In this document: piece after piece, positions 6,072 to 49,093 of the stretch | Layout of the letters: every line of letters begins with the position of its first letter | Numbering within the stretch: the first letter of the stretch is position 1 | Origin: Candidatus Omnitrophota bacterium | GTDB lineage: Bacteria > Omnitrophota > Gorgyraeia > 2-01-FULL-45-10 | NCBI GenBank assembly: GCA_041650935.1 | Contig: JBAZKH010000008.1 | Span: 8,825 to 72,824 of the forward strand | Direction of reading: 5' to 3' | DNA length: 64,000 bases | The notes under the pieces: generated by a model | The model's database searches: none | Seen by the model: only the letters and a program-made list of their open reading frames with translations | Told to the model about the DNA's origin: nothing | Program-made: the position numbers and the translations under genes

Positions 6072-6094
6072 CTGCGCACCTTCTTTCCGATCTG

Positions 6095-6150
6095 TAAAAT
6101 TTGAATTTCGTATTTGTTTAGAATTTCGATATTCGTATTTCGGGTTTAAA
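6095..6150. repeat. family 2 half-element, copy F4 (reverse orientation)
   Basis: Its reverse complement reads CTTTAAACCCGAAATACGAATATCGAAATTCTAAACAAATACGAAATTCAAATTTTAC. Confidence 0.7.
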
Positions 6151-7732
6151 GTTTTACCAATTTTAACTCGTATATGTTCTTCGACCCTCTTATCTCATCC
6201 AAAACCTTCTTCGGAACATTACTATCCACATTCCAAACACTTATGGCTTTACCGCCCTTCTCTTCGCGGCCGAACGATACGCTCGCCACGTTTATCTTAT
6301 TCTCGCCTAAGATGGTACCTATGTGGCCTATTATACCGGGCACATCCTTATTGAAGACGATGAGCATCGTCCCCTCGGGAACGCAGTCCACATAAAACTC
6401 GTCGATCTTCACGATACGCGGATCGACCTTTGTGAAGAGCGTCCCGCATAAGGAGCTCTTCATCTTGTCGGTCTCGACCTCGATCACTATAAGGCTGGCA
6501 AAATCCTGCAGTTCAGCCCTCTTCGAATCTATAACGGTTATACCGCGCTCTTTTGCCAGCACCATAGAATTCACGAAGTTTACCGTATCCTGCAGTATGG
6601 GCTTAAGCATGCCTTTTATTATCGTCGCGGTAAAAGGCGACAGGTCGTACTTCAAAAGGTCTCCCACGTACGTTATCTTAACCTTCTTTATATGCCCGTC
6701 GACAAGCTGCGCCTGGATAGCGCCCATATTTTCGGCCAGACGCAGATATGGTTCAAGGACCTTATACATTTCGGGATCGACGCACGGGACGTTAACCGCG
6801 TTCTTCACTCCACAGCCGAGGAGCGCGTCACGCACCGTATTCGCCACGTCTATTGCCACATTCATCTGCGCCTCTTCCGTAGAAGCACCGAGATGCGGGG
6901 TCAACACCACTTTCTCGAGCTTCGCCAGCTTTGAGTTCGTAGGCGGTTCCTCCTCGAATACGTCCAGCGCGGCGCCGGCCACCTTACCGGACTCTATGGC
7001 CCTGACAAGCGCCTCTTCATCTATTATACCGCCCCTCGCACAGTTGACGACCCTGACATTCCGCTTCATGACGGCGAATTCTTTATCCGATATTATATGC
7101 CTAGTCTCTTCCGTAAGAGGCGTATGGACCGTTATGTAGTCGGCATTTTTGTATATCGTCTTGAGGTCGACCAGCTCTATGCCAAGCTCCTTGGCCCTAT
7201 CGGCCGAGAGGAACGGATCATAAGCCAGCACCTTCATCCCGAAAGTAATGGCGCGCTTCGCTACCTCCGTGCCTATCCTGCCCAGACCCACTATGCCGAG
7301 CGTCTTGCCGTAGAGTTCCACGCCCATGAACTTTTTGCGCTCCCATTCGCCCCGCTTCACGGAAAGATCGGCCTGTGGTATATTACGGGAGAGGGCAAGT
7401 ATCATGGAAAAAGTATGCTCCGCCGTCGAAATAGTATTACCCGCGGGCGTATTGACGACGATTATCCCCTTCTTAGAGGCCGCCGCAACATCGACGTTGT
7501 CCAAACCGACCCCGGCCCTTCCTATTATTTTAAGCCTGGCGGCGGCGCCTATGACATCCTTGGTCACCTTGGTGGCGCTGCGCACCAGCAGGGCATCGTA
7601 ATCCTTGATCACCCGCTTAAGCTCTTCGGGCGTAAGTTTCGTATTAACGTCTACTTTGAATTCTTTCTCTTTCTCCAGTATTTCGACCGCTTCTTTCGAG
7701 AGCGAATCGCTGATCAAGACTTTGAATGACAT
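6146..7732 (-). CDS. serA: D-3-phosphoglycerate dehydrogenase
   Basis: The 528-aa protein has a 2-hydroxyacid dehydrogenase Rossmann motif (GLGRIG) and C-terminal ASB and ACT domains. Confidence 0.9.
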   Translation of the reverse strand: MSFKVLISDSLSKEAVEILEKEKEFKVDVNTKLTPEELKRVIKDYDALLVRSATKVTKDVIGAAARLKIIGRAGVGLDNVDVAAASKKGIIVVNTPAGNTISTAEHTFSMILALSRNIPQADLSVKRGEWERKKFMGVELYGKTLGIVGLGRIGTEVAKRAITFGMKVLAYDPFLSADRAKELGIELVDLKTIYKNADYITVHTPLTEETRHIISDKEFAVMKRNVRVVNCARGGIIDEEALVRAIESGKVAGAALDVFEEEPPTNSKLAKLEKVVLTPHLGASTEEAQMNVAIDVANTVRDALLGCGVKNAVNVPCVDPEMYKVLEPYLRLAENMGAIQAQLVDGHIKKVKITYVGDLLKYDLSPFTATIIKGMLKPILQDTVNFVNSMVLAKERGITVIDSKRAELQDFASLIVIEVETDKMKSSLCGTLFTKVDPRIVKIDEFYVDCVPEGTMLIVFNKDVPGIIGHIGTILGENKINVASVSFGREEKGGKAISVWNVDSNVPKKVLDEIRGSKNIYELKLVKL

Positions 7733-7752
7733 TACGCTATCTCCTTGCTTTC

Positions 7753-7881
7753 TTTAAATCCGAAATCCGAATATCGAAATTCTAAACAAATAAGAAATTC
7801 AAATTTTACAATTTTGAAACACTGGAGCTTGAAAAATTAGGATTTGTTTCGAATTTCGGATTTCGCGCTTCGGATTTATCC
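7753..7881. repeat. AT-rich palindromic intergenic element, family 2, copy F1
   Basis: The left half reads TTTAAATCCGAAATCCGAATATCGAAATTCTAAACAAATAAGAAATTCAAATTTTACAATTTTGAAA, and the inverted right half ends ...GATTTGTTTCGAATTTCGGATTT...CGGATTTATCC. Confidence 0.75.
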
Positions 7882-7886
7882 TTTTC

Positions 7887-9014
7887 TTATTGTAATATTT
7901 TTTCGGCCGCGGCCACACCCTTACCTGCACTGAACTTATATCCCAATTTCACGAGCGCCTGTTCCAGCGCCTTTATAGATTCGATCGTATGTTCCCTGTC
8001 TATTCCGCCCATGTGAGCAGCCCTGAATATCTTGCCCTTCAGGGTATCCTGTCCGCCGGCGAATGTAACGCCGAACTCCGTCTTCAGGAGCTTTATGATA
8101 TCGTCGGCGTTTATCCCCTCGGGGGCATTTATGCCGGTTACTGCGGCGGACGGGTGCCTGGAAAATACCGTAAGCCCCATCGTCTTACAAGCCTGGCGAA
8201 ATGCTTCCGACTGATTCACGTGCCGGGCGATGACCTTATCTATTCCCTCGGCATTGATCGTCTCCACCGCTTTCTTCAACCCGATGACCAAAGTTATCGC
8301 GGAAGTGAACGGCGTATCCGTATTGAGATAAGACTTCTGATATTTTTTGAAGTTAAAATAGAATTTCGGGAGCCGCGACGTTTCGACGGCTTTCCACGCC
8401 TTCTGGCTGACCGAACAGAACGACAGTCCCGGCGGTATCATCAGGCCCTTCTGCGAGCCGCAGACTGCTATATCGACTCCCCAGGCGTCGTTCTCGAAAT
8501 TATCAGCACCGAGACCGCTTATCACGTCGACGACAAATAATGCATCCGCCTTATTCACCACCCGGCCTATCGCCTTAATGTCGTATACTGTAGCGGTTGA
8601 TGTTTCGCAAAGCGTGGTATATACGCCCTTAACGCCGGGATTCTTCTTTAATAGTTCTTCGATCGTCTCCGGCTTCGGCGCGTCCCCCCATTCGACATCG
8701 AGCGCAATAACCTCGACTCCGTATGCCTTGGCGATGTCGCCGAACCTTTCGCCGAACTTACCGCCGCGCACCACTATTATCTTATCGCCGGCCGAGAGGC
8801 AGTTCACAATCGACGCTTCCATCGCCCCCGTCCCGCTCGAAGTAAACGTAAATAGATCCCCCGACGTTTTAAATATTTTCTTCAGGCCCTCGGTCGCGTC
8901 TTTGAATATGGCCTGATACTCTTTAGTCCGATGGTGTATCATCGGCCTGGCCATTTCGTTTCTTATCTCCTCGGGCACCGGCGTCGGTCCCGGCGTCATC
9001 AGATATTTCTTCAT
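7887..9014 (-). CDS. class V aminotransferase, probably phosphoserine aminotransferase of the AGXT-like type
   Basis: It has the class-V fold and a PLP-lysine region (SQKGLM). It lies adjacent to serA. The start is probably MKKYLMTPGPT. Confidence 0.8.
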   Translation of the reverse strand: MKKYLMTPGPTPVPEEIRNEMARPMIHHRTKEYQAIFKDATEGLKKIFKTSGDLFTFTSSGTGAMEASIVNCLSAGDKIIVVRGGKFGERFGDIAKAYGVEVIALDVEWGDAPKPETIEELLKKNPGVKGVYTTLCETSTATVYDIKAIGRVVNKADALFVVDVISGLGADNFENDAWGVDIAVCGSQKGLMIPPGLSFCSVSQKAWKAVETSRLPKFYFNFKKYQKSYLNTDTPFTSAITLVIGLKKAVETINAEGIDKVIARHVNQSEAFRQACKTMGLTVFSRHPSAAVTGINAPEGINADDIIKLLKTEFGVTFAGGQDTLKGKIFRAAHMGGIDREHTIESIKALEQALVKLGYKFSAGKGVAAAEKILQ

Positions 9015-24994: not shown

Positions 24995-25030
24995 CCGTAG
25001 TCACATCACAGTAGACTGATACGAAAAATT
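24995..25030. repeat. family 1 end fragment E plus the conserved 3' tail
   Basis: The sequence TCACATCACAGTAGACTGATACGAAAAATT matches the right inverted repeat of copy A plus its flank (TAGACTGATACGAAAAATT), and it abuts a stop codon. Confidence 0.55.
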
Positions 25031-26101
25031 TTACCTCCCTAAAATTTTCGCGGCCGCCGCAAGCACCTCATCGACCGTTACCGCCTCGAGACACTGAAAA
25101 CCTTTCGCGCAGTCATGCGCGAGACATTCTATGCAGCCGACATCCTTATGGAGCACCACATCGCGCTTGCCTGTCGGCCCCCAGCGCTGCGGCGAAAGCC
25201 CTCTGTCGTGCCTGCCGAATATCGCGATCACAGGCGTACCGACGGCGCACGCTATATGGACCGGTCCGGAATCGTTCGATATGAATAGCCGCGCGCGCCT
25301 CAATACGCTTGCCACATCCGCAACGCTCGTCCTGCCCGCGAGGTTCAGACAATTTTTCTTTAAGCGATTCGATACTCTATCGCCCAGTTCTTTATCCGCG
25401 GCGGAGGCTACAACTATTATCTTTACGCCGTATCGCTCGATCAAGGCCTGCGCGGCCCTGGCAAACTTATCGGGGCTCCACCTCTTCGAAGGGCAGCTGG
25501 CGCCGGGGTTTATTGCCACACAAAGATCGTCTTTACCGATACCCCCCTCGCGCAGCATCTCATCCACCCTCACTTCGGAATGGCCGTTCACGGGCATATA
25601 AAGAGGCTTATCTTTCGGTTCCAGGCCTGTATACCGCAATATATCGAGGGTATAATCGATCTCGTGCTTTAAGCCGTATTGCTTGGTATGCGGCAGGCGG
25701 GTGGTGAGCAAAAACCCCCATTTCCTGTTATACCCTACCGTCTCTGGGATCCCGGCCAGTGAAACCAGAAGGTGCGTCCTCTTCGTCGGGTGCAGGATAA
25801 GGGCTATGTCGAATTTTTTACGGCGTAACGAGCGGATGAAACCCAAATTTCTCAACAGCCCCTTCTCCCGCCCGTTCTTATCGTAGACTATGATTTCATC
25901 GAGGTAAGGATTGCCTTCCAGTATATCCTTGGCATATCTCCTCACCATAAAAGCGATATAGCCATCGGGGCAGACGTCGCGGACAGCCTTGATCACGGGA
26001 GTCGAGAGCAAGACATCCCCTATCCTGTCGAGCCTCACGATCAACACCCGCTTCCCTTCATGCCTTTGGATTTTGGATTTTGGATTTTGGATTTTATTCA
26101 T
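25031..26101 (-). CDS. ADP-heptose:LPS heptosyltransferase (GT9)
   Basis: It has the GT9 N-terminus (RVLIVRLDRIGDVLL) and C-terminal motifs. An alternative GTG start at about 26047 would place the GGATTTT x4 repeat in the 5' UTR. Confidence 0.8.
   Translation of the reverse strand: MNKIQNPKSKIQRHEGKRVLIVRLDRIGDVLLSTPVIKAVRDVCPDGYIAFMVRRYAKDILEGNPYLDEIIVYDKNGREKGLLRNLGFIRSLRRKKFDIALILHPTKRTHLLVSLAGIPETVGYNRKWGFLLTTRLPHTKQYGLKHEIDYTLDILRYTGLEPKDKPLYMPVNGHSEVRVDEMLREGGIGKDDLCVAINPGASCPSKRWSPDKFARAAQALIERYGVKIIVVASAADKELGDRVSNRLKKNCLNLAGRTSVADVASVLRRARLFISNDSGPVHIACAVGTPVIAIFGRHDRGLSPQRWGPTGKRDVVLHKDVGCIECLAHDCAKGFQCLEAVTVDEVLAAAAKILGR
26068..26095. repeat. heptanucleotide tandem repeat (GGATTTT) of 4 units at the 5' end of a GT9 gene
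   Basis: The sequence ggatttt x4 encodes codons 2 to 11 (KIQNPKSKIQ) if the gene starts at ATG 26101. With a GTG start at 26047 it lies in the 5' leader. Confidence 0.8.
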
Positions 26102-29982: not shown

Positions 29983-32070
29983 CTATAGATACGGCCGCAT
30001 GGCCTCAAGTACTTCGTCGACCGTTATCCGCTTCATACATATAAAATTCTTTGCGCAGTTGGGACTGTAACACGGGCTGCATTTAAGTTCATCCTTCTTC
30101 GTTATGACCACGCAGTTCCCCGACGGCGGCGCATGCCGCGCGGGATCTGTGGGGCCGAAAAGCGCTATGCACGGAGTACCCACAGCCGCGGCTATGTGCA
30201 TCGGCGCGGAGTCCGGCGTAATATAGACCTTGAAATGCCCGATGAGGCCGGCGAGTTCCAGTATACTCGTCCGCCCTGCGGCTACGAGCGGCCGCGACTT
30301 AGCAGCCCTGGCTATGGCCCGGGCAAACTCCGCATCCTCTTCGGCTCCGGTCAGGACCGTCCGCAAATTGAACTCTTTGGCGAGCCTGTCGGATAGTTCG
30401 ACGATATTCAGGCTCGGCCAATTCTTCGTCACCCATCTGGATGACGCCCTGACATTCACTCCTACTAGCCCGGCAGACGGTGTCATCCATCCTTCCGCCA
30501 GCAGCTTATCGGCATGTTCCTTTTCCGATCCGGAGGGCCACAGCTCCAGGCGTTTATCCTGCGGCTTTATGGCTGCCATCCGCAGCGTCCTGAACTGGTG
30601 CTCGATCGGGTCGAGGTACGGCGCATCGTCCCGGAGGCGTTTGTTCAGAAGAAACGACAGTTTTTTATTGTCGTATCCGTAGCGAAGCGGCGCCAGGCTC
30701 AGTGCGGCAAGTATATGGCTGCGCTTCGAGTTCTGGAGATCGATAACGATATCAAAACAATGCTGCCGCAGTTCCCTGCCAAGGCGCCATAGTCCGGCAA
30801 TGCCGTGGTTTTTGCCGTTAAAATCGCAGACTATCCTTTCGTTTATATACGGGCACCTGTCGAGCGCCTCCTGTGATTGGACGCCGACCAGGACCTTTAT
30901 ATTGGCTTTCGGGTACCTGGCGCGTATCGCCCTGAGCGACGGCACGCTCAAAATAACGTCGCCTATAGCGCTCATCTTTATGACGAGGATATTCAGCGTC
31001 GCGACCGCCTCCTCATAGACCGCGAGCGTACGCCCCATCATCCTGTCGAGATTGAAATACGTTTCGACGCGCCGCCTCGATTCTATGGCTATATTTACCC
31101 AGAGCGTCCTCGCCCCGTAAAGCTCGGATATCTTAGCGGCTATATCTTTCGGATTTTGAGGCGCGCACAAAAGGCCCGTCTTCTTATCTTCAATGATGTC
31201 GACAACGCCGCCGACCTGCGTGGCAACCACCGGCACACCCGAGGCCTGGGCTTCTATAATAACCCTGCCGAATGCTTCCGGCGTTATTGTCGCGGATACC
31301 AGGACGTCGAGCCGGCTCATCACTTTCGGCACATCGTTGGTTGCCGGCAGAAAATCGATGACACTGGTCAACCCCAGCCTTCTTATCAAAAGCTCAAGGT
31401 CTTCTCTATATTTCTCCTTAGGCGCCGCGCCGGCTATTACAACCTTCAGATTCGGTATCTGGCGGCTCAGGATCGATATCGCTTTGATAAAATCAGCATG
31501 CCCTTTAAGCGGCGTTATCCTGGAGATCATGCCTACCGTAAAATATTCCGGCGAATGTGTCGACGGGTCCCTGAACGTAAACCTGTTCAGGTCCACGCCG
31601 CGCGGTATCAGGCGTATCCTGTCATACGGGACATTGAAATTGCTCACCATGTGCTTCGCCATTATGTTCGAAGCAACGATGACGTATTTGCCCCACCCCA
31701 TCGCCTCGCTCATCAGATGTTTCTTGTAATAGCCGTGGGCCGTCGTTATAAATGTCCTATTCGTCGACTTGCACGCGATATAGGCTATTAAAGCGGGTAC
31801 ACGCGAGCGCGCGTGGACAATGTCGATATCTTCCCTGCGGATTATTTCGCAGAGCGCTTTTATCATCCGCATCATACTAAAAACGGACTTTTTCCCGACA
31901 GGCAGATTGTAATGGCGAGCGCCTACGGCATCGAGTTCCCTCACGAGCCGGCCCCCGGCAGAGACCGTAATGGCCTTATGCCCATGCGCGACAAGGTACT
32001 TCGCGAGGTCTATAGTGCCGGTCTCGACTCCGCCGACATCCAGCGATGGAAGTATCTGCAGTATATTCAT
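29983..32070 (-). CDS. bifunctional glycosyltransferase: N-terminal GT4 fused to a C-terminal GT9 heptosyltransferase-like domain
   Basis: The first roughly 340 aa are paralogous to the neighbouring GT4 (VSATITPEAFGRVIIEAQA). The last roughly 340 aa have GT9 motifs (LNILVIKMSAIGDVILSVPS). Confidence 0.75.
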   Translation of the reverse strand: MNILQILPSLDVGGVETGTIDLAKYLVAHGHKAITVSAGGRLVRELDAVGARHYNLPVGKKSVFSMMRMIKALCEIIRREDIDIVHARSRVPALIAYIACKSTNRTFITTAHGYYKKHLMSEAMGWGKYVIVASNIMAKHMVSNFNVPYDRIRLIPRGVDLNRFTFRDPSTHSPEYFTVGMISRITPLKGHADFIKAISILSRQIPNLKVVIAGAAPKEKYREDLELLIRRLGLTSVIDFLPATNDVPKVMSRLDVLVSATITPEAFGRVIIEAQASGVPVVATQVGGVVDIIEDKKTGLLCAPQNPKDIAAKISELYGARTLWVNIAIESRRRVETYFNLDRMMGRTLAVYEEAVATLNILVIKMSAIGDVILSVPSLRAIRARYPKANIKVLVGVQSQEALDRCPYINERIVCDFNGKNHGIAGLWRLGRELRQHCFDIVIDLQNSKRSHILAALSLAPLRYGYDNKKLSFLLNKRLRDDAPYLDPIEHQFRTLRMAAIKPQDKRLELWPSGSEKEHADKLLAEGWMTPSAGLVGVNVRASSRWVTKNWPSLNIVELSDRLAKEFNLRTVLTGAEEDAEFARAIARAAKSRPLVAAGRTSILELAGLIGHFKVYITPDSAPMHIAAAVGTPCIALFGPTDPARHAPPSGNCVVITKKDELKCSPCYSPNCAKNFICMKRITVDEVLEAMRPYL

Positions 32071-32201
32071 AAGTCATTCCGCAATAAATTTTTCGCCGTC
32101 AGTCCGGCGCTTTTTCCGGCGGCCTGCAATTGATATGTTTAAGATTTTATGTCCCGCCTTTTATTTCCCGTTTCCCTGGCCAAATTTTTCGAAAACTCAG
32201 G

Positions 32202-32335
32202 AATATTATTTGGCGATGTGGCGAGCTTAGGCGTAAAAATTGCGAGGCAGCGTCCGAGCAATTTTTCTCGAGCGTAAATTTTACATGGTTAAAATTTACG
32301 CGTCCTAAGCTCACCACATCGCCAAATAATATTAG
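32202..32335. repeat. structured intergenic element with terminal inverted repeats, family 1, copy A (complete)
   Basis: It has terminal inverted repeats (GAATATTATTTGGCGATGTGGCGAGC and GCTCACCACATCGCCAAATAATATT) and two internal hairpins, AAAAATTGC[GAGGCAGCGTCCGA]GCAATTTTT and GCGTAAATTTTA[CATGGT]TAAAATTTACGC. Confidence 0.8.
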
Positions 32336-32357
32336 ACTGATACGAAAAATTATCTCC

Positions 32358-34301
32358 TTATATCAATTTTCGAACTGCCTCGAAAATCTTCTCCGCATCC
32401 TGCGGAAGTTTCACCGGGATCGTATCGCGCCATGCCTTTTCCAGCGCGGACGATAAACCGAATGCCTCGACGATAGTAATGTAACCCCTGTCCGACAAAC
32501 CCTTCAACGCCCGCTCATGCTTCGTCATAGAGTCTTTTTTCTTCGCAAGCTTGAAGACTACCACCTTCTTGCCGGCGCTGATCGCTTCGGAGATCATCGA
32601 GATCGATTCTTCCGAGACTACGGCAACCTTGCTGAGCGCGAGCATCCCGCTCACCGCTCCGTCAAGGTTTCGCTCGTTCGCAATGATTAGCAGTTTGCAC
32701 GCGGGATTACCCTGCAGCCTCTTCTTCAAAATATCTTCGACTGCCGGAGAGGTGCGTCTCGATGTCGTAACCAAAAGCTCTACGCCGCGAGACCCGATAA
32801 AGGATGTTAAACCATCGAGCGCCAAATTTATATTCTCTGCCGTCAGGGAAAATTCCGGGTTGCCGCCTCCTACAAACAGGCTTACCGCTTTGTCTGTCCC
32901 GATACCGGTGCTGCCCTTCAACTTTTCGCCGTCCCTTTTAAGGGACTCGTCGTCTACAAGGTTAGGCGCGAGATCAGTAGTAATAACGTTCTTTGCCTTC
33001 AAAAGATTGTCGTGTTTTGGGATGACCGCTAGATCGAATTTCCTAAGGCTCATCGGTATACCGGGCTTCATAACGACTATATTCCGCGCGCAATTCTCCT
33101 TCGACATGAATATATTCACCGGCGCAAGGCTCGACCCGCACGAGACGACAAATTCCGAATACGTCTTCATAAGCGTATCATACGTCTCTGCGGCAAGGCA
33201 TGATCTCATTATCCCCATACGGCCGTGGCACCGCCAGGTCGCGAAGACCGATGCGGCAGCAAGAAGCGCTCGGGAAAATCCGCTCTTATATTTCACATCT
33301 ACGACGACGACCCGCGTATCCGCTATCTTATACCCCTGGGTCGCCCGGGCGCGCTTTAACTGCCGCACAACAGCCATGGACTGGTTCAGGTGGCCGGCCT
33401 TGCCGTCATTAAGCACAAGTACCGTCCTGACCGGCGTCGATTTCCACCGCTTGTGGAGCCAGAGCCACTGGTCGGGATATTTCCTTATATACGCCTCAAG
33501 AAGCCGCGCGAACTTCTGGACGTTCTCCCTTACATCGCCGGGACTTTGAGTCTTCTGAAAATCTATATACTCTTCAAGGTAAAGTTTATGGTACGGCCCG
33601 CCCGTCCGCACGATGAAATTCGGCAATATCAGGGAGCCGGAGTGCTTGGCTATCTCGAAGGCTCCCGTATGATAAGACGCGGGTCTGCCGAAAAAATCTA
33701 CGAAGATACCGTTCTTGCCGGCGTCCTGGTCGGAGAGTATACCGACTATATTTTTATCACGGAGCGCCTTCAATATATTTTTGACCTCCATCCCCTTCCT
33801 TATTACCTTACAGCCGTTCGATTCCCGCAAAAGGTTCAAGAGCTCGTTCAAACGCTTCATCTTCTGCTCTCTGACAAGGACAAGGATAGGAAAACCTTCG
33901 ACGGAACTGACCAAGCTGGAGAGTTCCCAGTCGCCGAAGTGCGCGGTAAGGAGTATCGTCCCCCTGCCGGATTTGGCGGCGTTACGGATACGCTCCATAT
34001 TCATAACCTCGACATATCTGTCGACGTACCGCCGGTTGACCTTCGTAAGGTTCAGGATCTCGATGAAGGTCTGGACCATATTGCGGTAAACGTTTTTGGT
34101 AATGCGCCTCAGTTCTGCCGGAGACTTCTCTTTTGCGAATGCACTCTTCAGATTTGCGTACGCGACGACCCGCCTCGCCTTATTAAAGAAAAATACGGCA
34201 TCCCCGATGCGCCTGCCAAACCACAGCGACGCGCTGACCGGCACAAGGCCTAGTATCTTATTAAGCGCCCTTACGGCTATATAGGCTGCGTAATCTATCA
34301 A
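32358..34301 (-). CDS. fusion protein: LpxL-like lipid A acyltransferase domain plus ELM1/DUF1022 (GT-B-like) domain
   Basis: The N-terminal roughly 300 aa form a Lip_A_acyltransferase domain (HFGDWE). The C-terminal roughly 340 aa form an ELM1-family domain. It overlaps the 3' end of lpxK by about 40 nt. Confidence 0.7.
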   Translation of the reverse strand: MIDYAAYIAVRALNKILGLVPVSASLWFGRRIGDAVFFFNKARRVVAYANLKSAFAKEKSPAELRRITKNVYRNMVQTFIEILNLTKVNRRYVDRYVEVMNMERIRNAAKSGRGTILLTAHFGDWELSSLVSSVEGFPILVLVREQKMKRLNELLNLLRESNGCKVIRKGMEVKNILKALRDKNIVGILSDQDAGKNGIFVDFFGRPASYHTGAFEIAKHSGSLILPNFIVRTGGPYHKLYLEEYIDFQKTQSPGDVRENVQKFARLLEAYIRKYPDQWLWLHKRWKSTPVRTVLVLNDGKAGHLNQSMAVVRQLKRARATQGYKIADTRVVVVDVKYKSGFSRALLAAASVFATWRCHGRMGIMRSCLAAETYDTLMKTYSEFVVSCGSSLAPVNIFMSKENCARNIVVMKPGIPMSLRKFDLAVIPKHDNLLKAKNVITTDLAPNLVDDESLKRDGEKLKGSTGIGTDKAVSLFVGGGNPEFSLTAENINLALDGLTSFIGSRGVELLVTTSRRTSPAVEDILKKRLQGNPACKLLIIANERNLDGAVSGMLALSKVAVVSEESISMISEAISAGKKVVVFKLAKKKDSMTKHERALKGLSDRGYITIVEAFGLSSALEKAWRDTIPVKLPQDAEKIFEAVRKLI

Positions 34302-36577: not shown

Positions 36578-36854
36578 CTTACTCCTAAATTTTTACGGGT
36601 CCTGCCGCAAATTTATGGGTCCTGTCCTCGGTCGCCTTTCGGTGCTCCTTCGGCCTCGCGGGTTTACAATATCGTGAGAAACTAGGCGCGTATCTAAGTG
36701 CCGCCAGAATTGCTTACGATATTTTAAGTCTTAAGCAGTGTCGCCCTGACAATGGCAATTCTAAGCGGCGGCACCCCATCCGCTTCGGCCTTGTGCGCAC
36801 CTCAAGGCTGGACCTCGGCCACCCATAAATTTGCCTAGCCTAGTTATCCATAAC

Positions 36855-36883: not shown

Positions 36884-37555
36884 TTACTTGCTTGCTTTGA
36901 AATGTTTTTCTAGCGGTATTTCATCAAGTATTTCGGATAACAAATTCCGTTTTTTCCTATTGCAATCAAAGCAAAGCAATCGTAAGTTATCAACAGATGT
37001 CGTACCGCCTTTCGAAAATGGAATAAGATGATCAAATTCCATCTTATTGTCAGGTACGGGCTTAAAACATTTTTGACAAATCTGCCCATCTCTTCGAACC
37101 ACTTTCAACATAACATCCCTAGGAATCTCTCGTGATAGACGCCTTATTTCTTTTGTTTCTGTGAATGGTTCGGCGTTAAAATATACGGGACAAATATGTC
37201 CAAAGATTCTACAACTAATTTCTTTTAATATTCCAGAGATTTCAACAGGGTAATCACTCGTCTTAAAATCCAAAATACATTTAATAAAAAATTTCTTACG
37301 ATTTTTATCTAATTTTTTACCACCTTGAAGTCTTCCCGTAGAAATACACTCTTTTAAGTATTCATTATGCTCAATAGCCTCACTACGTATAGGAGGAATT
37401 ATAGGGAATTGTTCAACTAAAGGTCCATAAGGACAGTATTTTATTTCCCAGCACGGTTTACAAACTAGCGATTGTTTATATCTTACTATTTTAACAATCT
37501 CTGTCGAGGGTGTTTGTATGGAGAATCCCAGAACTTTTTTTAGACACTTTTCCAT
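36884..37555 (-). CDS. HNH endonuclease with a Cys-rich N-terminal region (orphan, in an AT-rich islet)
   Basis: It has a C-terminal HNH motif (DHLIPFSKGGTTSVDNLRLLCFDCNRKK). The gene is about 35% GC, against a neighbourhood well above 50%. Confidence 0.7.
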   Translation of the reverse strand: MEKCLKKVLGFSIQTPSTEIVKIVRYKQSLVCKPCWEIKYCPYGPLVEQFPIIPPIRSEAIEHNEYLKECISTGRLQGGKKLDKNRKKFFIKCILDFKTSDYPVEISGILKEISCRIFGHICPVYFNAEPFTETKEIRRLSREIPRDVMLKVVRRDGQICQKCFKPVPDNKMEFDHLIPFSKGGTTSVDNLRLLCFDCNRKKRNLLSEILDEIPLEKHFKASK

Positions 37556-37610
37556 ATTTTACGAACGCTTTCCACTCTTGTTTTCCCAGTAAAATTTTTC
37601 GCATCCGTTG

Positions 37611-37742
37611 AAATGTGATGTGGCGATGTGGTGAGCAGGGCGTTAAAAGTTCGAGGCAGCGTACGAGAACTTTTATCGAGCGAAATTTTCACATGGCTGA
37701 AAATTTCGCGTCCTAAGCGAGCCACATTGACACAGCACATTT
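37611..37742. repeat. structured intergenic element, family 1, copy B
   Basis: It has the same architecture as copy A, with hairpins TAAAAGTTC[GAGGCAGCGTACGA]GAACTTTTA and GCGAAATTTTCA[CATGGC]TGAAAATTTCGC, and compensatory stem changes relative to copy A. Confidence 0.8.
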
Positions 37743-37772
37743 ACTGCTACATCGAAAAATTTTACGCACTCC

Positions 37773-38645
37773 TTACGCCCGCGGATGAGCTTTGTCGTAT
37801 ACCGTCTTCAGGCGGTCCATCGTCACGTGCGTATATATCTGCGTCGTCGACAAATTCGCGTGCCCCAGAAGCTCCTGAACGCTGCGCAAGTCCGCGCCGC
37901 GGTCGAGCATATGCGTCGCAAACGAATGGCGCAAGCTATGCGGCGATATGTGCTCCGACATACTGCATAGTTTTATATACTTATCGAGTATGCGCCGCAC
38001 ACTCCTGTCCCAGAGGCGCGTCCCGTTCTTCCCGAGAAAGACCGCTTCCTTATCCTTAACCTTCATCCCTTCGCGTTTATCGATATACCGCCTGAGCGCC
38101 GAAACGGCGGGTGAACCTATCGGCACCATCCGCTCCTTCGAGCCCTTACCGAAGACCTTTATGACCTCGCCGATCAGATCGACATTCCTCATATTCAGCC
38201 CTACAAGCTCGCTCACCCGGATGCCGCCCGAGTATATTGTTTCGAGGATAGCCGTGTCCCTGAGGGCGAAGACGTCATCCCCTCCGGGGCATTGGAGCAG
38301 TCTCGCCACCGCTTTTTCGTCCAGGACCACGGGCAGCCTCTTATCCAGTTTGGGAGTAGAGACGGCGGTAATCGGATTCGCCTTGATATGCCCTTCGCGG
38401 TACAGGAACCTGAAGAAGCTCCGTAAACTCGCGAGTTTGCGCGCTATCGTCCTCTTCGCGTAGTTCCGCCCGCGCAATTCCGCAAGAAATTTGCGCAATA
38501 GAAGATGGTCGATCGCCGAGACGTCCTTATCGCCGAGAAACCGGCTGAAAGATTCCAGATCTATCCGGTAATTCAGGATAGTATGCGGCGACGAATTTCT
38601 CTCGACATCGAGATAATTTATGAACTTTTCGATAAATCTCTGCAT
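37773..38645 (-). CDS. xerC: tyrosine site-specific recombinase XerC/XerD family
   Basis: It has the catalytic region (HSLRHSFATHMLDRGADLRSVQELLGHANLSTTQIYTHV). It lies immediately downstream of topA, as in dprA-topA-codV neighbourhoods. Confidence 0.8.
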   Translation of the reverse strand: MQRFIEKFINYLDVERNSSPHTILNYRIDLESFSRFLGDKDVSAIDHLLLRKFLAELRGRNYAKRTIARKLASLRSFFRFLYREGHIKANPITAVSTPKLDKRLPVVLDEKAVARLLQCPGGDDVFALRDTAILETIYSGGIRVSELVGLNMRNVDLIGEVIKVFGKGSKERMVPIGSPAVSALRRYIDKREGMKVKDKEAVFLGKNGTRLWDRSVRRILDKYIKLCSMSEHISPHSLRHSFATHMLDRGADLRSVQELLGHANLSTTQIYTHVTMDRLKTVYDKAHPRA

Positions 38646-41584: not shown

Positions 41585-41632
41585 ATCTTTCTGTATCGAA
41601 ATTTATTAGTCCTGTCCCCTTCTATCATCTCC

Positions 41633-41700
41633 CGAGCGCAATTTTCACATGGCTGAAAATTACGCATCCCTGCGAGATGCCAACCCCGAGAGGGGATTCC
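41633..41700. repeat. family 1 partial copy D plus an adjacent GC-rich hairpin
   Basis: The partial copy reads GCGCAATTTTCACATGGCTGAAAATTACGC and is followed by CCCCGAGAGGGGATTCCCCTCGGG. Confidence 0.6.
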
Positions 41701-41717
41701 CCTCGGGATCGAAAAAA

Positions 41718-42035
41718 TTATTTCCTCTTTATGCCGATAAGGCCGAACAGGGTCCAACTGCCTATTATTATAAGCGCCGTCAGGCTGACCGCATTCAGAA
41801 CTATGATCTTCCGCGTTATAGTCTCTTTTTCGCGCCTGAATATATCGAGTATATAATCTTCTTCCGATGAGTTTCTCAGCGCGTTACCGGACTTTATCTT
41901 CGTCATCATCATCGTCGTCGCCTTATCGTTAAGCGACATCGCTTTCCTGATGAGCGGCATACCGATAACGCCGTAATTGAATGCGAGAATAAGTACGAGC
42001 GTCGCCCCGATCCAGATTCTGGCTTTTAAAGTCAT
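41718..42035 (-). CDS. small two-TM membrane protein, hypothetical
   Basis: The ORF has two hydrophobic helices and no recognisable family. The start is uncertain. Confidence 0.4.
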   Translation of the reverse strand: MTLKARIWIGATLVLILAFNYGVIGMPLIRKAMSLNDKATTMMMTKIKSGNALRNSSEEDYILDIFRREKETITRKIIVLNAVSLTALIIIGSWTLFGLIGIKRK

Positions 42036-43932: not shown

Positions 43933-44709
43933 TCAAAACAATCCTCCAAACAAAAGACTTATAATCTTATTTCCGAAAAATATCGAAACCAAAGCCGCCG
44001 CCGAAAGGAACGGGCCGTAAGGAATGATCTCCGCGCCTTTTCTCAATTTTAAGATTATGCCGGGCACTGCGCCCAGGAAAGGCGCAATGAAGAATGTCAA
44101 AATGACCAGCTTCAACCCTATAAAAGAACCGATCATAGCCATCAGCTTGACGTCCCCGCCGCCCATCGCCTCTTTTTTGAATGCCGCCTTTCCTATCGCT
44201 CCCATAAAGTATATACTCCCTGCCCCGGCGAGCGCACCCGCAGCCGAGCCTATTATGGCGCGGGAGCGCATCGTCTCATTGAGGATAGACGGAAAGATAA
44301 AAGCGAGTAAAAACCCCGCCGCGAGCCCGCCAAGCGATATCTCGTCGGGTATCTCCTGTATCTCGAAATCGACAAAGGTCGCGACTATCAGGCCGCAGGT
44401 CATTATAGAGTATGTAAAAAATTTCGGTGTAATACAGAACTTTAAAAAGAGCGCTGTAAGCACAAGGGCCGTCAACGCCTCGACTACCGGATACCTTAAC
44501 CGTATCCGCGCTTTACACGACCTGCATTTGCCGCCCAGCGCGGCGTAGCTAAAAACAGGGATATTGTCATACCAGGCGATGGCCTTCTTGCACTTCGGAC
44601 AATGGGACGCGGGAACGACTATGGATTCCCCTTTAGGCATCCTGTAGATGCATACGTTAAGGAAACTGCCGAGAACCAGTCCGAACAGAAAAACCGCCAT
44701 TACTGCCAT
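43933..44709 (-). CDS. prepilin (type IV leader) peptidase, A24 family
   Basis: It has an N-terminal C4 zinc site (CPKC...CRSC) and multiple TM segments with the A24 architecture. Confidence 0.8.
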   Translation of the reverse strand: MAVMAVFLFGLVLGSFLNVCIYRMPKGESIVVPASHCPKCKKAIAWYDNIPVFSYAALGGKCRSCKARIRLRYPVVEALTALVLTALFLKFCITPKFFTYSIMTCGLIVATFVDFEIQEIPDEISLGGLAAGFLLAFIFPSILNETMRSRAIIGSAAGALAGAGSIYFMGAIGKAAFKKEAMGGGDVKLMAMIGSFIGLKLVILTFFIAPFLGAVPGIILKLRKGAEIIPYGPFLSAAALVSIFFGNKIISLLFGGLF

Positions 44710-44714
44710 AGATT

Positions 44715-44807
44715 ATTAAATCCGAAATTCGAATATCGAAATTCTAAACAAATACGAAATCCTAAATTCCAATTTGGAAAATTCAGATTTCGCGATTCGG
44801 ATTTATC
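44715..44807. repeat. family 2, copy F2
   Basis: It reads TTAAATCCGAAATTCGAATATCGAAATTCTAAACAAATACGAAATCCTAAATTCCAATTTGGAAAATTCAGATTTCGCGATTCGGATTTATCC. Confidence 0.75.
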
Positions 44808-44821
44808 CTCCCTTTTCCAGT

Positions 44822-47272: not shown

Positions 47273-47305
47273 AGTCTCACCTCAAAATAAATTTTTCGCT
47301 GTAAC

Positions 47306-47440
47306 AATAATATGATATGTCAATGTGGTTCGTTCAGGACGCACAATTTTCAGCCATGTGAAAATTGTGCTCCGTAAAAGTTCTCGTACGCTGCCTCGAA
47401 CTTTTAAGGCCTGCGCTCACCACATCGCCATATCACATTC
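47306..47440. repeat. structured intergenic element, family 1, copy C (core inverted)
   Basis: It is the reverse complement of copy B over about 125 bp. Its second hairpin is GCACAATTTTCA[GCCATG]TGAAAATTGTGC. Confidence 0.8.
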
Positions 47441-47457
47441 CTGACTTGTAGAAAAAT

Positions 47458-48450
47458 TTATTTTTCCATCCAAGGCATCATCTTCCTCAAGTCCGAGCCG
47501 ACCTTCTCGATCTGGTGAGCGCACTCTTTGTCCAGTATCGCTTTATAGTTGGGCCTGCCCGCCTCATTCTCCTTGATCCATTCGCGCGCGAACTTACCCG
47601 ACTTTATCTCTTTGAGAATCTTCTGCATCACTTTACGCGTCCTGTCGGTTATTATCTTCTTGCCGCGGGTGATATCGCCGTAACACGCGGTATTCGAAAC
47701 CCTGCATCTCATCCCGCTTATGCCGTACTGCTGGATAAGGTCCGTGATGAGTTTGAGCTCATGCAGCACCTCGAAGTACGCGATCTCCGGCTGGTAACCG
47801 GCCGCGATCAGCGTATCGAATCCCGCCTTGATAAGTTCCGACGCGCCGCCGCAGAGGACCGCCTGTTCGCCGAAAAGATCTGTCTCCGTCTCCTCGTCGA
47901 ATGTCGTCTCGATAACGCCTGCTCTCGTCCCGCCGATGCCTTTGGCATACGCAAGCGCTATATTCCGCGCGTTGCCGGTAGCATCCTGATAGACCGCTAC
48001 CAGGCACGGGACACCTTTACCTTCCTCGTACATCCTGCGCACAAGCGCGCCCGGGCCTTTTGGAGCGACCATGATGACGTCGATCTTCTTCGAAGGTTTA
48101 ATCTGTTTGAATCTTATATTGAACCCGTGCGAAAAGAGGAGCGCCTTGCCCTTCGTCATATTTTCGGCGATCTCGTCCTTGTAGACCTTCGCCTGGACAT
48201 GGTCCTCAGTCAGCACCTGGATAATATCAGCCTGCGCCGAGGCCTCTTTAGCGGAAACAGGGTTAAAGCCGTCCTTCTTCGCCTGCTCATAATTTTTCGT
48301 ACCGGGAAGTTCGCTCACGATAACACTGCACCCCGAGTCGCGTAAATTCAGGCTCTGGCTCCGGCCCTGTATGCCGTATCCGATAACGGCGATCTTTTTG
48401 CCCTTCAACAAATTCAAATCCGCATCCTTTTCATAATAGATCTTTGCCAT
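47458..48450 (-). CDS. ilvC: ketol-acid reductoisomerase
   Basis: It has the class I KARI motif (GYGIQG). Confidence 0.9.
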
Positions 48451-48475: not shown

Positions 48476-48580
48476 GACTTTAAATTCGAAACTCTAAATC
48501 CGAAATCCTAAACAAATACCAATTTTCAAAATTCGAATTTGTGATTTGTTTCGAATTTCGATATTTGAATTTCGTGCTTA
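48476..48580. repeat. family 2, copy F3
   Basis: It contains CTAAATCCGAAATCCTAAACAAATACCAATTTTCAAAATTCGAATTTGTGATTTGTTTCGAATTTCGATATTTGAATTTCG. Confidence 0.7.
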
Positions 48581-49093
48581 TTCATTTACTTCCGGTTTTC
48601 CCTCAACCTTCAGTCCTTTATCCTCCGTGCTCATCGCAACCCTGCCGGTCCTCACCACCTCCAATATCCCGAAAGGACGCAGGAGTTCGAGAAGCCCATG
48701 GATCTTTGTCTGGTCGCCTACGACCACGATACTGATCGACTTAGCCCCGGCGTTCTCTATCCCTGCCCCGGCCGATTCTATGGCCTCCAGGACCTCTTTC
48801 CTGTTCTTTGCCGTCACGGAGACCTTTAAAAGAATGAGCTCCCTGTCTATAAATTCGCCGTCCTTGAAATCGACGACCTTTATGACATCGATAAGCTTAT
48901 TGAGCTGTTTCTTTATCTGTTCGAGCGTCCGGTCGTCGCCCTCGACGACTATCGTCATCCTGGAGACGGTCGGATCCTCTGTCTCGCCGACAGCGAGCGA
49001 GCTGATATTGAATCCGCGCGCGCTGAATAGCCCGGATATACGCGCCAGGACGCCGAACTTGTTCTCGACTAAGACTGATATTGTATGCTTCAT
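48578..49093 (-). CDS. ilvN: acetolactate synthase small (regulatory) subunit
   Basis: It has an ACT domain. The start MKHTISVLVENKFGVL is preceded by GAGGG. Confidence 0.85.
   Translation of the reverse strand: MKHTISVLVENKFGVLARISGLFSARGFNISSLAVGETEDPTVSRMTIVVEGDDRTLEQIKKQLNKLIDVIKVVDFKDGEFIDRELILLKVSVTAKNRKEVLEAIESAGAGIENAGAKSISIVVVGDQTKIHGLLELLRPFGILEVVRTGRVAMSTEDKGLKVEGKPEVNE

Follow-up and report, generated by a model that had tools for sequence, protein, structure and literature searches.

A structured repeat family was confirmed as real in the window (the whole 64,000-nucleotide stretch of Candidatus Omnitrophota DNA that was analysed) and in relatives of its copies outside it, with a unit of about 175 nt (full copies 173-176 nt) once the outer inverted repeat is included, rather than the approximately 130 bp of the original prediction. 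The family was previously uncatalogued and most resembles REP and MITE elements, from which it is distinguished by a branched fold with invariant loops and a closing helix common to several families, and further by the exact sharing of the host's stop codon and by sites that are used more than once. For Omnitrophota, an uncultivated phylum whose cells are very small, we know of no described interspersed repeats and, to our knowledge, of no genetic tools; the family offers a ready marker of genome plasticity in this phylum, as well as an unusually clean natural data set for structure covariation.

Copies and database searches

Three full copies, one truncated copy, and two solo ends were located in the window, and all five places at which recurrence had been predicted hold related sequence. 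Copy A (32180-32352, + strand; profile E=1.1e-31) has the closing-helix halves AAATTTTTCG at 32182-32191 (left) and CGAAAAATT at 32343-32351 (right), arms at 32202-32231 (left) and 32304-32333 (right) that a repeat search matched over 30 nt with 97% complementarity, hairpin P3 at 32232-32270 (loop GAGGCAGCGTCCGA, 32244-32257), and hairpin P4 at 32272-32301 (loop CATGGT, 32284-32289). The stop codon of the gene upstream of copy A lies at 32358-32360, with the element 6 nt beyond it. This copy is atypical in that its right arm perfectly complements its left arm, the family's fixed mismatches having been lost. Copy B (37589-37764, + strand; profile E=1.8e-53) has the closing-helix halves TAAAATTTTTCG at 37590-37601 and CGAAAAATTTTA at 37753-37764, arms at 37611-37640 (left) and 37712-37742 (right), hairpin P3 at 37641-37678 (loop 37653-37666), and hairpin P4 at 37680-37709 (loop CATGGC, 37692-37697); it lies 8-9 nt beyond the stop codon of a xerC-like gene (37773-37775) and gave RNA-fold z-scores of -7.4 on the + strand and -5.6 on the - strand. 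Copy C (47288-47460, - strand; profile E=5e-44) is inverted with respect to A and B, as had been predicted, but the inversion takes in the whole element with its spacers and not the core alone. A repeat search aligned 37639-37741 with 47309-47411 (copies B and C; 103 nt, 87%, inverted). The ilvC stop codon (47458-47460) is the terminal TAA of copy C, and the leuA start codon is found 15 nt past the other end.

The partial copy predicted at 41633-41680 is related to the others but does not belong to the same family: copy D (41630-41720, + strand; profile E=2.6e-10, model positions 88-176) is truncated and corresponds to the right half of a sister-family member, whose arms differ. It contains hairpin P4 (41636-41666), a CCCCGAGAGGGGATTCC-type right arm, and the right closing-helix half CGAAAAAATTA, inside which falls the stop codon of a 118-aa gene (41718-41720). 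Fragment E (24995-25033, + strand) is a solo right end (..CACATCACAGTAGACTGATACGAAAAATTTTA) carrying the TAA stop (25031-25033) of a heptosyltransferase gene (25031-26101, - strand); it has 19 nt in common with copy A (TAGACTGATACGAAAAATT), and TATCAGTCTA is common to these two only. A second solo end at 32084-32104 (+ strand; GGACTGACGGCGAAAAATTTA on the - strand) is located about 85 nt downstream of copy A in the sense direction, just before the start of the gene at 29983-32070 (- strand), and resembles, as judged by eye, the spacer and closing-helix half of full copies such as that of L212 (L-numbers are labels of element-bearing or syntenic loci outside the window, e.g., L022, L129, and L231). 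The window genes around the copies are all housekeeping genes on the minus strand, and the neighbours include heptosyltransferases, a lipid A acyltransferase fusion, the xerC-like gene, topA, dprA, leuA, and ilvC. The motif AATTTTTCG, which the original prediction had taken for a conserved tail linking the stop codon to the element, is half of the outer inverted repeat and is present at both ends; the window contains 11 occurrences where 1.45 would be expected, six of them flanking A, B, C, and E.

A loose-pattern scan of a genome collection returned 118 matches, 116 of them by chance in G+C-rich genomes, and the two true copies (L022 and L089) both came from Candidatus Omnitrophota MAGs. With a tighter pattern covering both loops, at least 112 metagenome loci were obtained, in which a profile built from 31 copies found at least 53 good copies; the relatives thus number at least 55 in total (about 53 metagenome copies and the 2 Omnitrophota MAG copies). 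The IlvC protein of the window is 91% identical to an Omnitrophica MAG protein, and this match, with that of the HNH protein described below, places the window itself in Omnitrophota; look-ups by exact sequence of the IlvC and HNH proteins gave no entry. No Rfam 15 covariance model matched the window or 12 of the loci at its gathering score, and at E<=10 these sequences yielded snoRNA/miRNA noise only. Viral contigs gave three chance matches and no true copy, a plasmid collection gave no match to the repeat, and a full-text literature search found no description of the family; the Rfam and literature results agree with the prediction that it had gone unrecognised.

Secondary structure and covariation

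We refer to the strand bearing the loop GAGGCAGCGTMCGA as the top strand and derived a consensus from 36 aligned copies. Each full copy lies between the two halves of an outer inverted repeat, (G)TAAAATTTTTCG...CGAAAAATTTTA(C), which in the window copies has AAATTTTTCG as its left half and CGAAAAATT(T) as its right half and is separated from the inner arms by 9-12 unpaired bases. On the top strand, the consensus runs from (G)TAAAATTTTTCG through a spacer and the left arm AATGTGATGTGGCGATGTGGTGAGCAGGG to hairpin P3 (CGTTAAAATTTC, loop GAGGCAGCGTACGA, GAAATTTTAYCG, then A) and hairpin P4 (GCGNAATTTTCA, loop CATGGC, TGAAAATTNCGC, then GT), and from there through the right arm CCCTGCGAACCACTCGACACAGCACATT and a second spacer to CGAAAAATTTTA(C). 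The resulting fold, which is possible on either strand, is a rod composed of the closing helix P1 (12 bp), an internal loop of 9-12 nt, the arm helix P2 (29 bp, interrupted by fixed mismatches and a single bulged T), and a junction with P3 and P4, in both of which the loop is invariant and the stem covaries freely. Terminal inverted repeats are present as predicted; their near-perfect pairing is peculiar to copy A, as the consensus has fixed mismatches and the bulged T. The two predicted hairpins, with the 14-nt loop GAGGCAGCGT(A/C)CGA, the CATGG loop, and compensatory differences in their stems, hold across the 36 copies.

Over these 36 copies the four-helix fold has 58 pairs, 94.5% of the cells being paired, and double (compensatory) changes occur at 30 of the 58. 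The covariation score was 0.198 against 0.082 in shuffles, with none of 500 shuffles reaching the observed value, and pairing fell to 36-51% when partners were slid by 1-3 columns. RNAalifold, which had been proposed as a check, predicts the same fold with compensatory changes at 22 of 44 pairs. P4 is 99.8% paired, although one of its positions is AU in 17 copies, CG in 17, and UA in 2, and another is CG in 26, UA in 9, and GC in 1. Both loops are kept in three copies that were found through synteny alone, and loop conservation is therefore not an artefact of the search pattern. Selection on structure, as originally proposed, is the best reading of the covariation of stems around fixed loops.

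The two strands differ in how well they fold. P2 has fixed mismatches on the top strand (A.G in 27 of 36 copies, G.A in 25 of 36, and tandem G.A/A.G in 30-31 of 36), and at the base of P3 a bulged T plus T.C/T.T are fixed on the same strand. The top strand is the better RNA fold in 34 of the 36 copies (mean -75.8 vs -68.0 kcal/mol) and has 24 G.U pairs against 12 A.C pairs; on the transcribed (bottom) strand, the fixed mismatches are pyrimidine-pyrimidine. A scan for intrinsic terminators found no G+C-rich hairpin with a U tract at any element, and a promoter scan found no consensus promoter attributable to the element, which must therefore be read through.

Placement at stop codons

Both neighbouring long ORFs are on the bottom strand, antisense to the loop strand, in about 39-43 copies (about 40 of 43), and the opposite orientation was seen in just two copies, L153 and window copy C. 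The element's terminal TAA doubles as the stop codon of the upstream gene in about 25 of 40 copies, and in nine further copies this stop codon is found 2-21 nt from the element; the far-end TAA, serving as an internal control, coincides with the end of a long ORF only 1-2 times. Database gene calls for L232 and L234 agree with this placement. The original prediction had every copy just 3' of a stop codon, and its gene-3'-end location is upheld with a precision beyond what was claimed; in the window the wording fits A and B, whereas C, D, and E share the TAA itself. Many copies are inside operons, 12-95 nt from the next start codon, and most leave no space for a promoter. Judged by GC skew, genes are on the G-rich strand in every locus. 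Gene direction and replication direction are thereby confounded throughout, so the orientation bias is not assignable to a single-strand DNA mechanism over selection at the RNA level.

Presence and absence at orthologous sites

Eight syntenic loci were obtained through homologues of IlvC. The ilvC-leuA junction is filled in the window; in L232/L233 an element turned the other way occupies the identical TAA; and the junction is empty (4-68 nt) in L231, L234, L236, L237, L238, and L239, with the IlvC C-terminus (..WMEK/..WMQK) and stop unmoved across filled and empty loci alike. At the 3' end of xerC, the window has the AAAAGTTC sub-family 8 nt past the stop, L234/L235/L217 have the AAAAATTGC sub-family right at the stop, L236 has a fourth family, and L237 and L238 are empty, running directly into kdtA. 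The site of copy D is empty in L234/L235, and one orthologous site holds different families in L212 and L129. From these filled and empty sites and their differing occupants it follows that elements have been gained and lost and that the same sites have been reused. Two further candidate empty-site pairs from blasting flanks (L162/L173 and L184/L199) were too diverged or not collinear. The original prediction had set selection on structure against a MITE; the filled and empty sites, the occurrence of both orientations, and the different sub-families are the behaviour of mobile DNA, and in this family conservation of structure and mobility are not alternatives.

No consistent direct target duplication was found at the junctions. 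The ends are inverted and not direct, the length of the left T-run tracking that of the right A-run, and AAAATTTT was rejected as a palindromic target duplication because these run lengths vary together in the manner of an inverted repeat. The junctions are consistent with seamless insertion immediately behind TAA, the symmetry of the ends preventing the definition of a one-sided target. Copies are 78-94% alike across genomes and cluster neither by genome nor by locus, and orthologous copies are 81-89% identical, as opposed to 66-84% for the adjacent 300 nt of coding DNA.

Sister families and nested insertions

Diverged copies have the same closing helix, P3 stem, and P4 hairpin but different arms, so that the family belongs to a superfamily. 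The arms of the second family are themselves short palindromes, of GGGGATTCC type, and its P3 loops are GAGCGAGACTGCGA or GAGTAGATACGA; full copies are found at L129:3025-3197 and L129:304-433, and window copy D corresponds to the right half of one of this kind. In a third family the P3 loop contains an 85-nt insert (L129:5005-5245), and the fourth, found after xerC in L236, has unrelated arms with the same closure, AAAATTTTTCG...CGAAAATTT. We consider it unlikely that the closing helix (G)TAAAATTTTTCG/CGAAAAATTTTA(C) marks a bacterial mobile unit of a new kind: a superfamily of folded single-strand cassettes with interchangeable structured cores that would home seamlessly and strand-specifically to TAA stops by an unrecognised enzyme, and that would persist because the closed rod holds the upstream stop and the downstream start together, preserving operon expression. 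The interchangeable cores would comprise at least four hairpin families and possibly also the 225-nt RNA gene described below.

The elements nest into one another. A chimera at L129:200-470 has the outer helices of the 225-nt element enclosing a second-family hairpin in the reverse of its usual orientation, and L229 and L120 have inserts of about 65 nt inside P4. An IS110-family insertion sequence (371-aa DEDD transposase) is inside the P3 stem at L136:551-1893, and a frameshifted, decayed IS5-like element (DUF772) is in the P4 loop, with CATGG on both sides, at L222:504-2115; both have their own, unrelated ends. IS110-family elements are known to target REP-like hairpins.

Candidate partner enzymes

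In the window and about 60 element-bearing loci, no transposase, whatever its kind, was seen to adjoin the elements or to be bracketed by them. A tblastn search using an Omnitrophota RAYT as query gave no relative in either the window or the loci, and about 2 Mb of loci yielded no parent insertion sequence sharing the element's termini. L231:497-1132, in a syntenic Omnitrophota genome, encodes a RAYT-like Y1 transposase (211 aa, PF01797), which is flanked there by three copies of the palindrome TTTTCCACCCCGGGGTGGAAA (472-495, 1150-1175, and 1240-1265). As a partner of the hairpin element it was rejected, since this sole RAYT seen is flanked by TTCCACCCCGGGGTGGAA and not by the hairpin element. 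In L236 and L231, the ilvC-leuA and alr-ilvD spacers are taken up by CCCCGG-type palindromes resembling those around the RAYT gene. Together, the L231 RAYT and the palindromes indicate that Omnitrophota also have classical REP/RAYT systems in the same niche.

A second candidate was an HNH endonuclease of 223 aa (36884-37555, - strand), encoded between copy B and the 225-nt element at a dip to 44% G+C. The best NCBIfam match of its domain is the IscB HNH (IscB/Cas9-like; E=3.7e-10, far below the family cut-off), and an NCBI Omnitrophota MAG encodes a protein with 100% identity to it. Its homologues, numbering more than 1,300 at full length (about 230 aa) in Omnitrophota and Patescibacteria, often adjoin Mrr-like or PD-(D/E)XK genes. 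The gene is absent from the same site in L234, L237, and L238 and was found in no other element-bearing locus. It was rejected as an IshB/IscB-like partner, the inspected homologues being in restriction/defence-like contexts without the element or a bracket motif.

Other repeats and structured elements

A second uncatalogued structured element of about 225 nt is present at 36609-36835 of the window (- strand), at L210:952-1175, L129:3346-3572, and L183:4175-4397, and at about 10 more places; in about a third of the loci it comes after hairpin elements, which belong to three families. Its fold is rod-like (z=-7.9), with 16 of 45 pairs showing compensatory changes, and G.U pairs are conserved on the gene-sense strand. 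The element also has the invariant stretches GGATGGGGGTG, ACAGATAC, TTGTAAACCCC, and GGCAGGACCC and a TATATA box about 10 nt upstream; in its type 1 copies, the same AAATTTTTCG/CGAAAAATTT helix forms the closure. No Rfam match was found for this element, which looks like a putative sRNA gene. Between 53885 and 61045 of the window, a 29-nt unit (CCCGGAATCTTACCCGGCAAGGGCATG) is repeated 22 times, in groups of two to five spaced 30-35 nt apart; such groups recur six times, at intervals of about 0.7-2.3 kb, and look like putative binding-site arrays upstream of a gene set that is itself repeated. Another intergenic repeat, A+T-rich and about 55-70 nt long (..AAATTTGAATTTCGTATTTGTTTAGAATTTCGATATTCG..), has no relation to the hairpin family and occurs in both orientations and with up to 91% identity at 6084-6157, 7752-7887, 44709-44809, and 48477-48589. 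A c-di-GMP-I riboswitch (65.5 bits) was found at L124:3900-3993, on an element-bearing Omnitrophota contig.

Discussion

We give an even chance to the reading that this is a REP/REPIN/MITE-like mobile repeat, non-autonomous and dependent on its structure, whose insertion beside TAA is seamless and which is co-transcribed. Such an element would be moved in trans by an enzyme reading the folded single strand, for which the closest precedent is a Y1/HUH transposase of the RAYT or IS200-IS605 type. The fixed loops and fixed asymmetries would represent protein contacts and the strand choice made by this enzyme, and the covarying stems, the seamless junctions by a short TAA-containing target, and the strand bias could all derive from it. 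Surviving insertions would be those that spare the upstream stop codon and the downstream ribosome-binding site, which may explain why most copies share the stop codon. The transcribed copy would be a closed hairpin inside the operon mRNA, formed as its two ends pair, and would limit polar damage by keeping the stop and the next start close. The IS110-family insertion in one copy and the L231 RAYT supply a context that fits a REP-like niche. Several observations weigh against a mobile repeat: there is no adjacent transposase, and the L231 RAYT has a different palindrome; in size and elaboration the element far exceeds known REPs and REPINs; the GTAG tag by the arms is a weak majority only; and the better-folding strand is antisense to the genes and, by analogy with IS608, is not the strand expected on the lagging-strand template. 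If the reading is right, this is a mobile element that shares the host's stop codon at most of its sites and has struck the same site repeatedly, and finding the mobilising enzyme would either extend the REP/RAYT paradigm to larger branched hairpins or reveal a new stop-codon-seeking insertion mechanism.

As copies are more alike than the adjacent coding DNA, purifying selection by the host fits at least as well as selfish spread. The main rival reading, possible though on the unlikely side, is that the element is a host-maintained cis-acting RNA module in operon mRNAs, its copies spread by occasional transposition or recombination. A closed hairpin after the stop codon would then stabilise the upstream message, be a processing site, or preserve or tune coupling to the next gene, with the conserved loops as putative protein-binding sites. 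The near-constant orientation relative to transcription, the exact placement at stops just before the next ribosome-binding site, the covariation of the stems, the cross-species conservation above that of adjacent coding DNA, and the need for read-through in an element with no promoter or terminator consensus of its own all speak for such a module. On the other hand, it is the transcribed strand that folds more weakly in 34 of 36 copies, has the pyrimidine-pyrimidine mismatches, and is disfavoured 24:12 by the G.U pairs; the ilvC-leuA housekeeping junction does without the element in six of eight related genomes; and copy C and the L232 copy are in opposite orientations at the same ilvC site. 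Were the RNA functional, it would be a widespread intercistronic regulator in Omnitrophota.

We consider it improbable that the element is a classical MITE, i.e., a deletion derivative of a DDE-transposase insertion sequence (IS630/Tc1-like) whose TA target was duplicated. T/A flanks are found on both sides of the terminal inverted repeats in most copies, and the element is small, has no ORF, is present in many copies, and shows presence/absence polymorphism, all as expected of a MITE. A TA duplication at the stop codon would, however, need A or G as the next base, and the far-end TA is in most cases followed by C or T instead (by T at the ilvC site), which disfavours such a duplication. Neither the 40:2 orientation bias nor the perfect covariation of the internal hairpins is expected of cut-and-paste transposition, and no longer, transposase-bearing element with the same ends was seen.

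It is very improbable that the covariation is a functionless mutational by-product of template switching in quasi-palindromes. Many of the double changes are transversions without single-change intermediates, as such a process would produce, and copy A shows just such an arm-to-arm conversion in P2. Template switching should nevertheless erase the P2 mismatches and the bulged T, which are kept in 25-31 of 36 copies, and it leaves the invariant loops, the closing helix across four families, and the orientation bias unexplained. We attach hardly any credence to an attC-like recombination site, suggested by the gene-3' position, fixed orientation, structure over sequence, unpaired spacer, and extrahelical base but lacking RYYYAAC/GTTRRRY cores, an integrase, or a cassette array and flanked by syntenic housekeeping genes, or to an independent small-RNA gene read from the loop-bearing strand, whose tandem G.A motifs recall structured RNAs but which has no sigma-70-type antisense promoter (though TTGACA-N17-TATAAT is used elsewhere in these genomes) and in most copies no room for one.

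Comparison with known systems

Like integron attC sites, the element is found at gene 3' ends in a single orientation, often with the stop codon inside the site, and conserves structure over sequence with paired boxes, an unpaired spacer, and extrahelical bases. It differs in having no core-site consensus (the termini GTAAAAT.../...ATTTTAC do not match the attC core RYYYAAC...GTTRRRY), integrase, or array, and in that the element and not the neighbouring gene is gained and lost; the sole nearby tyrosine recombinase is the xerC-like gene in its conserved dprA-topA-xerC context. Palindrome-associated elements derived from IS200/IS605 (PATEs) have imperfect hairpins with an extrahelical T, as it does, and would resemble it in seamless, strand-specific insertion by a short specific sequence, with which its junctions are compatible, but they have separate sub-terminal hairpins and no terminal inverted repeat, whereas here the two ends pair; no TnpA was found near the elements. 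In common with ERIC, Correia (NEMIS/CREE), YPAL, and RUP elements, which are 100-170 bp long, it has terminal inverted repeats with TA at the ends, a location between operon genes, RNA hairpins, and presence/absence among strains. It is set apart from these by the lack of sequence similarity (no Rfam match), a very strong orientation bias, covarying internal hairpins with fixed loops, no demonstrable TA duplication, and the existence of several families sharing only their termini. The general features of MITEs, namely terminal inverted repeats, small size, the lack of an ORF, multiple copies, and insertion polymorphism, are all present.

The comparison with the REP/REPIN-RAYT systems of E. coli, Pseudomonas, and Stenotrophomonas is two-sided. 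One account of REP sequences describes a conserved GTAG or CGTC tag at one end of the unit (PMC3733652). Here, GTAG before the left arm and CTAC after the right arm are found in roughly half of the 36 copies, the others having GCAG, TCAG, TTAG, or ATAG. The element differs in its 175-nt length (REPs are 20-40 nt and REPINs about 70-110 nt), three-way junction, two extra invariant-loop hairpins, AT-rich closing helix, and exact sharing of the stop codon, and no cognate RAYT was found. What it has in common with them is that it consists of two inverted units that pair into one long hairpin, is extragenic, and occurs in many copies; like them, it is a non-coding palindromic intergenic repeat placed just after genes, with conserved stem imperfections, and, as is here in part inferred, it would be mobilised in trans, long-lived in its lineage, targeted by IS110, and co-transcribed with operons.
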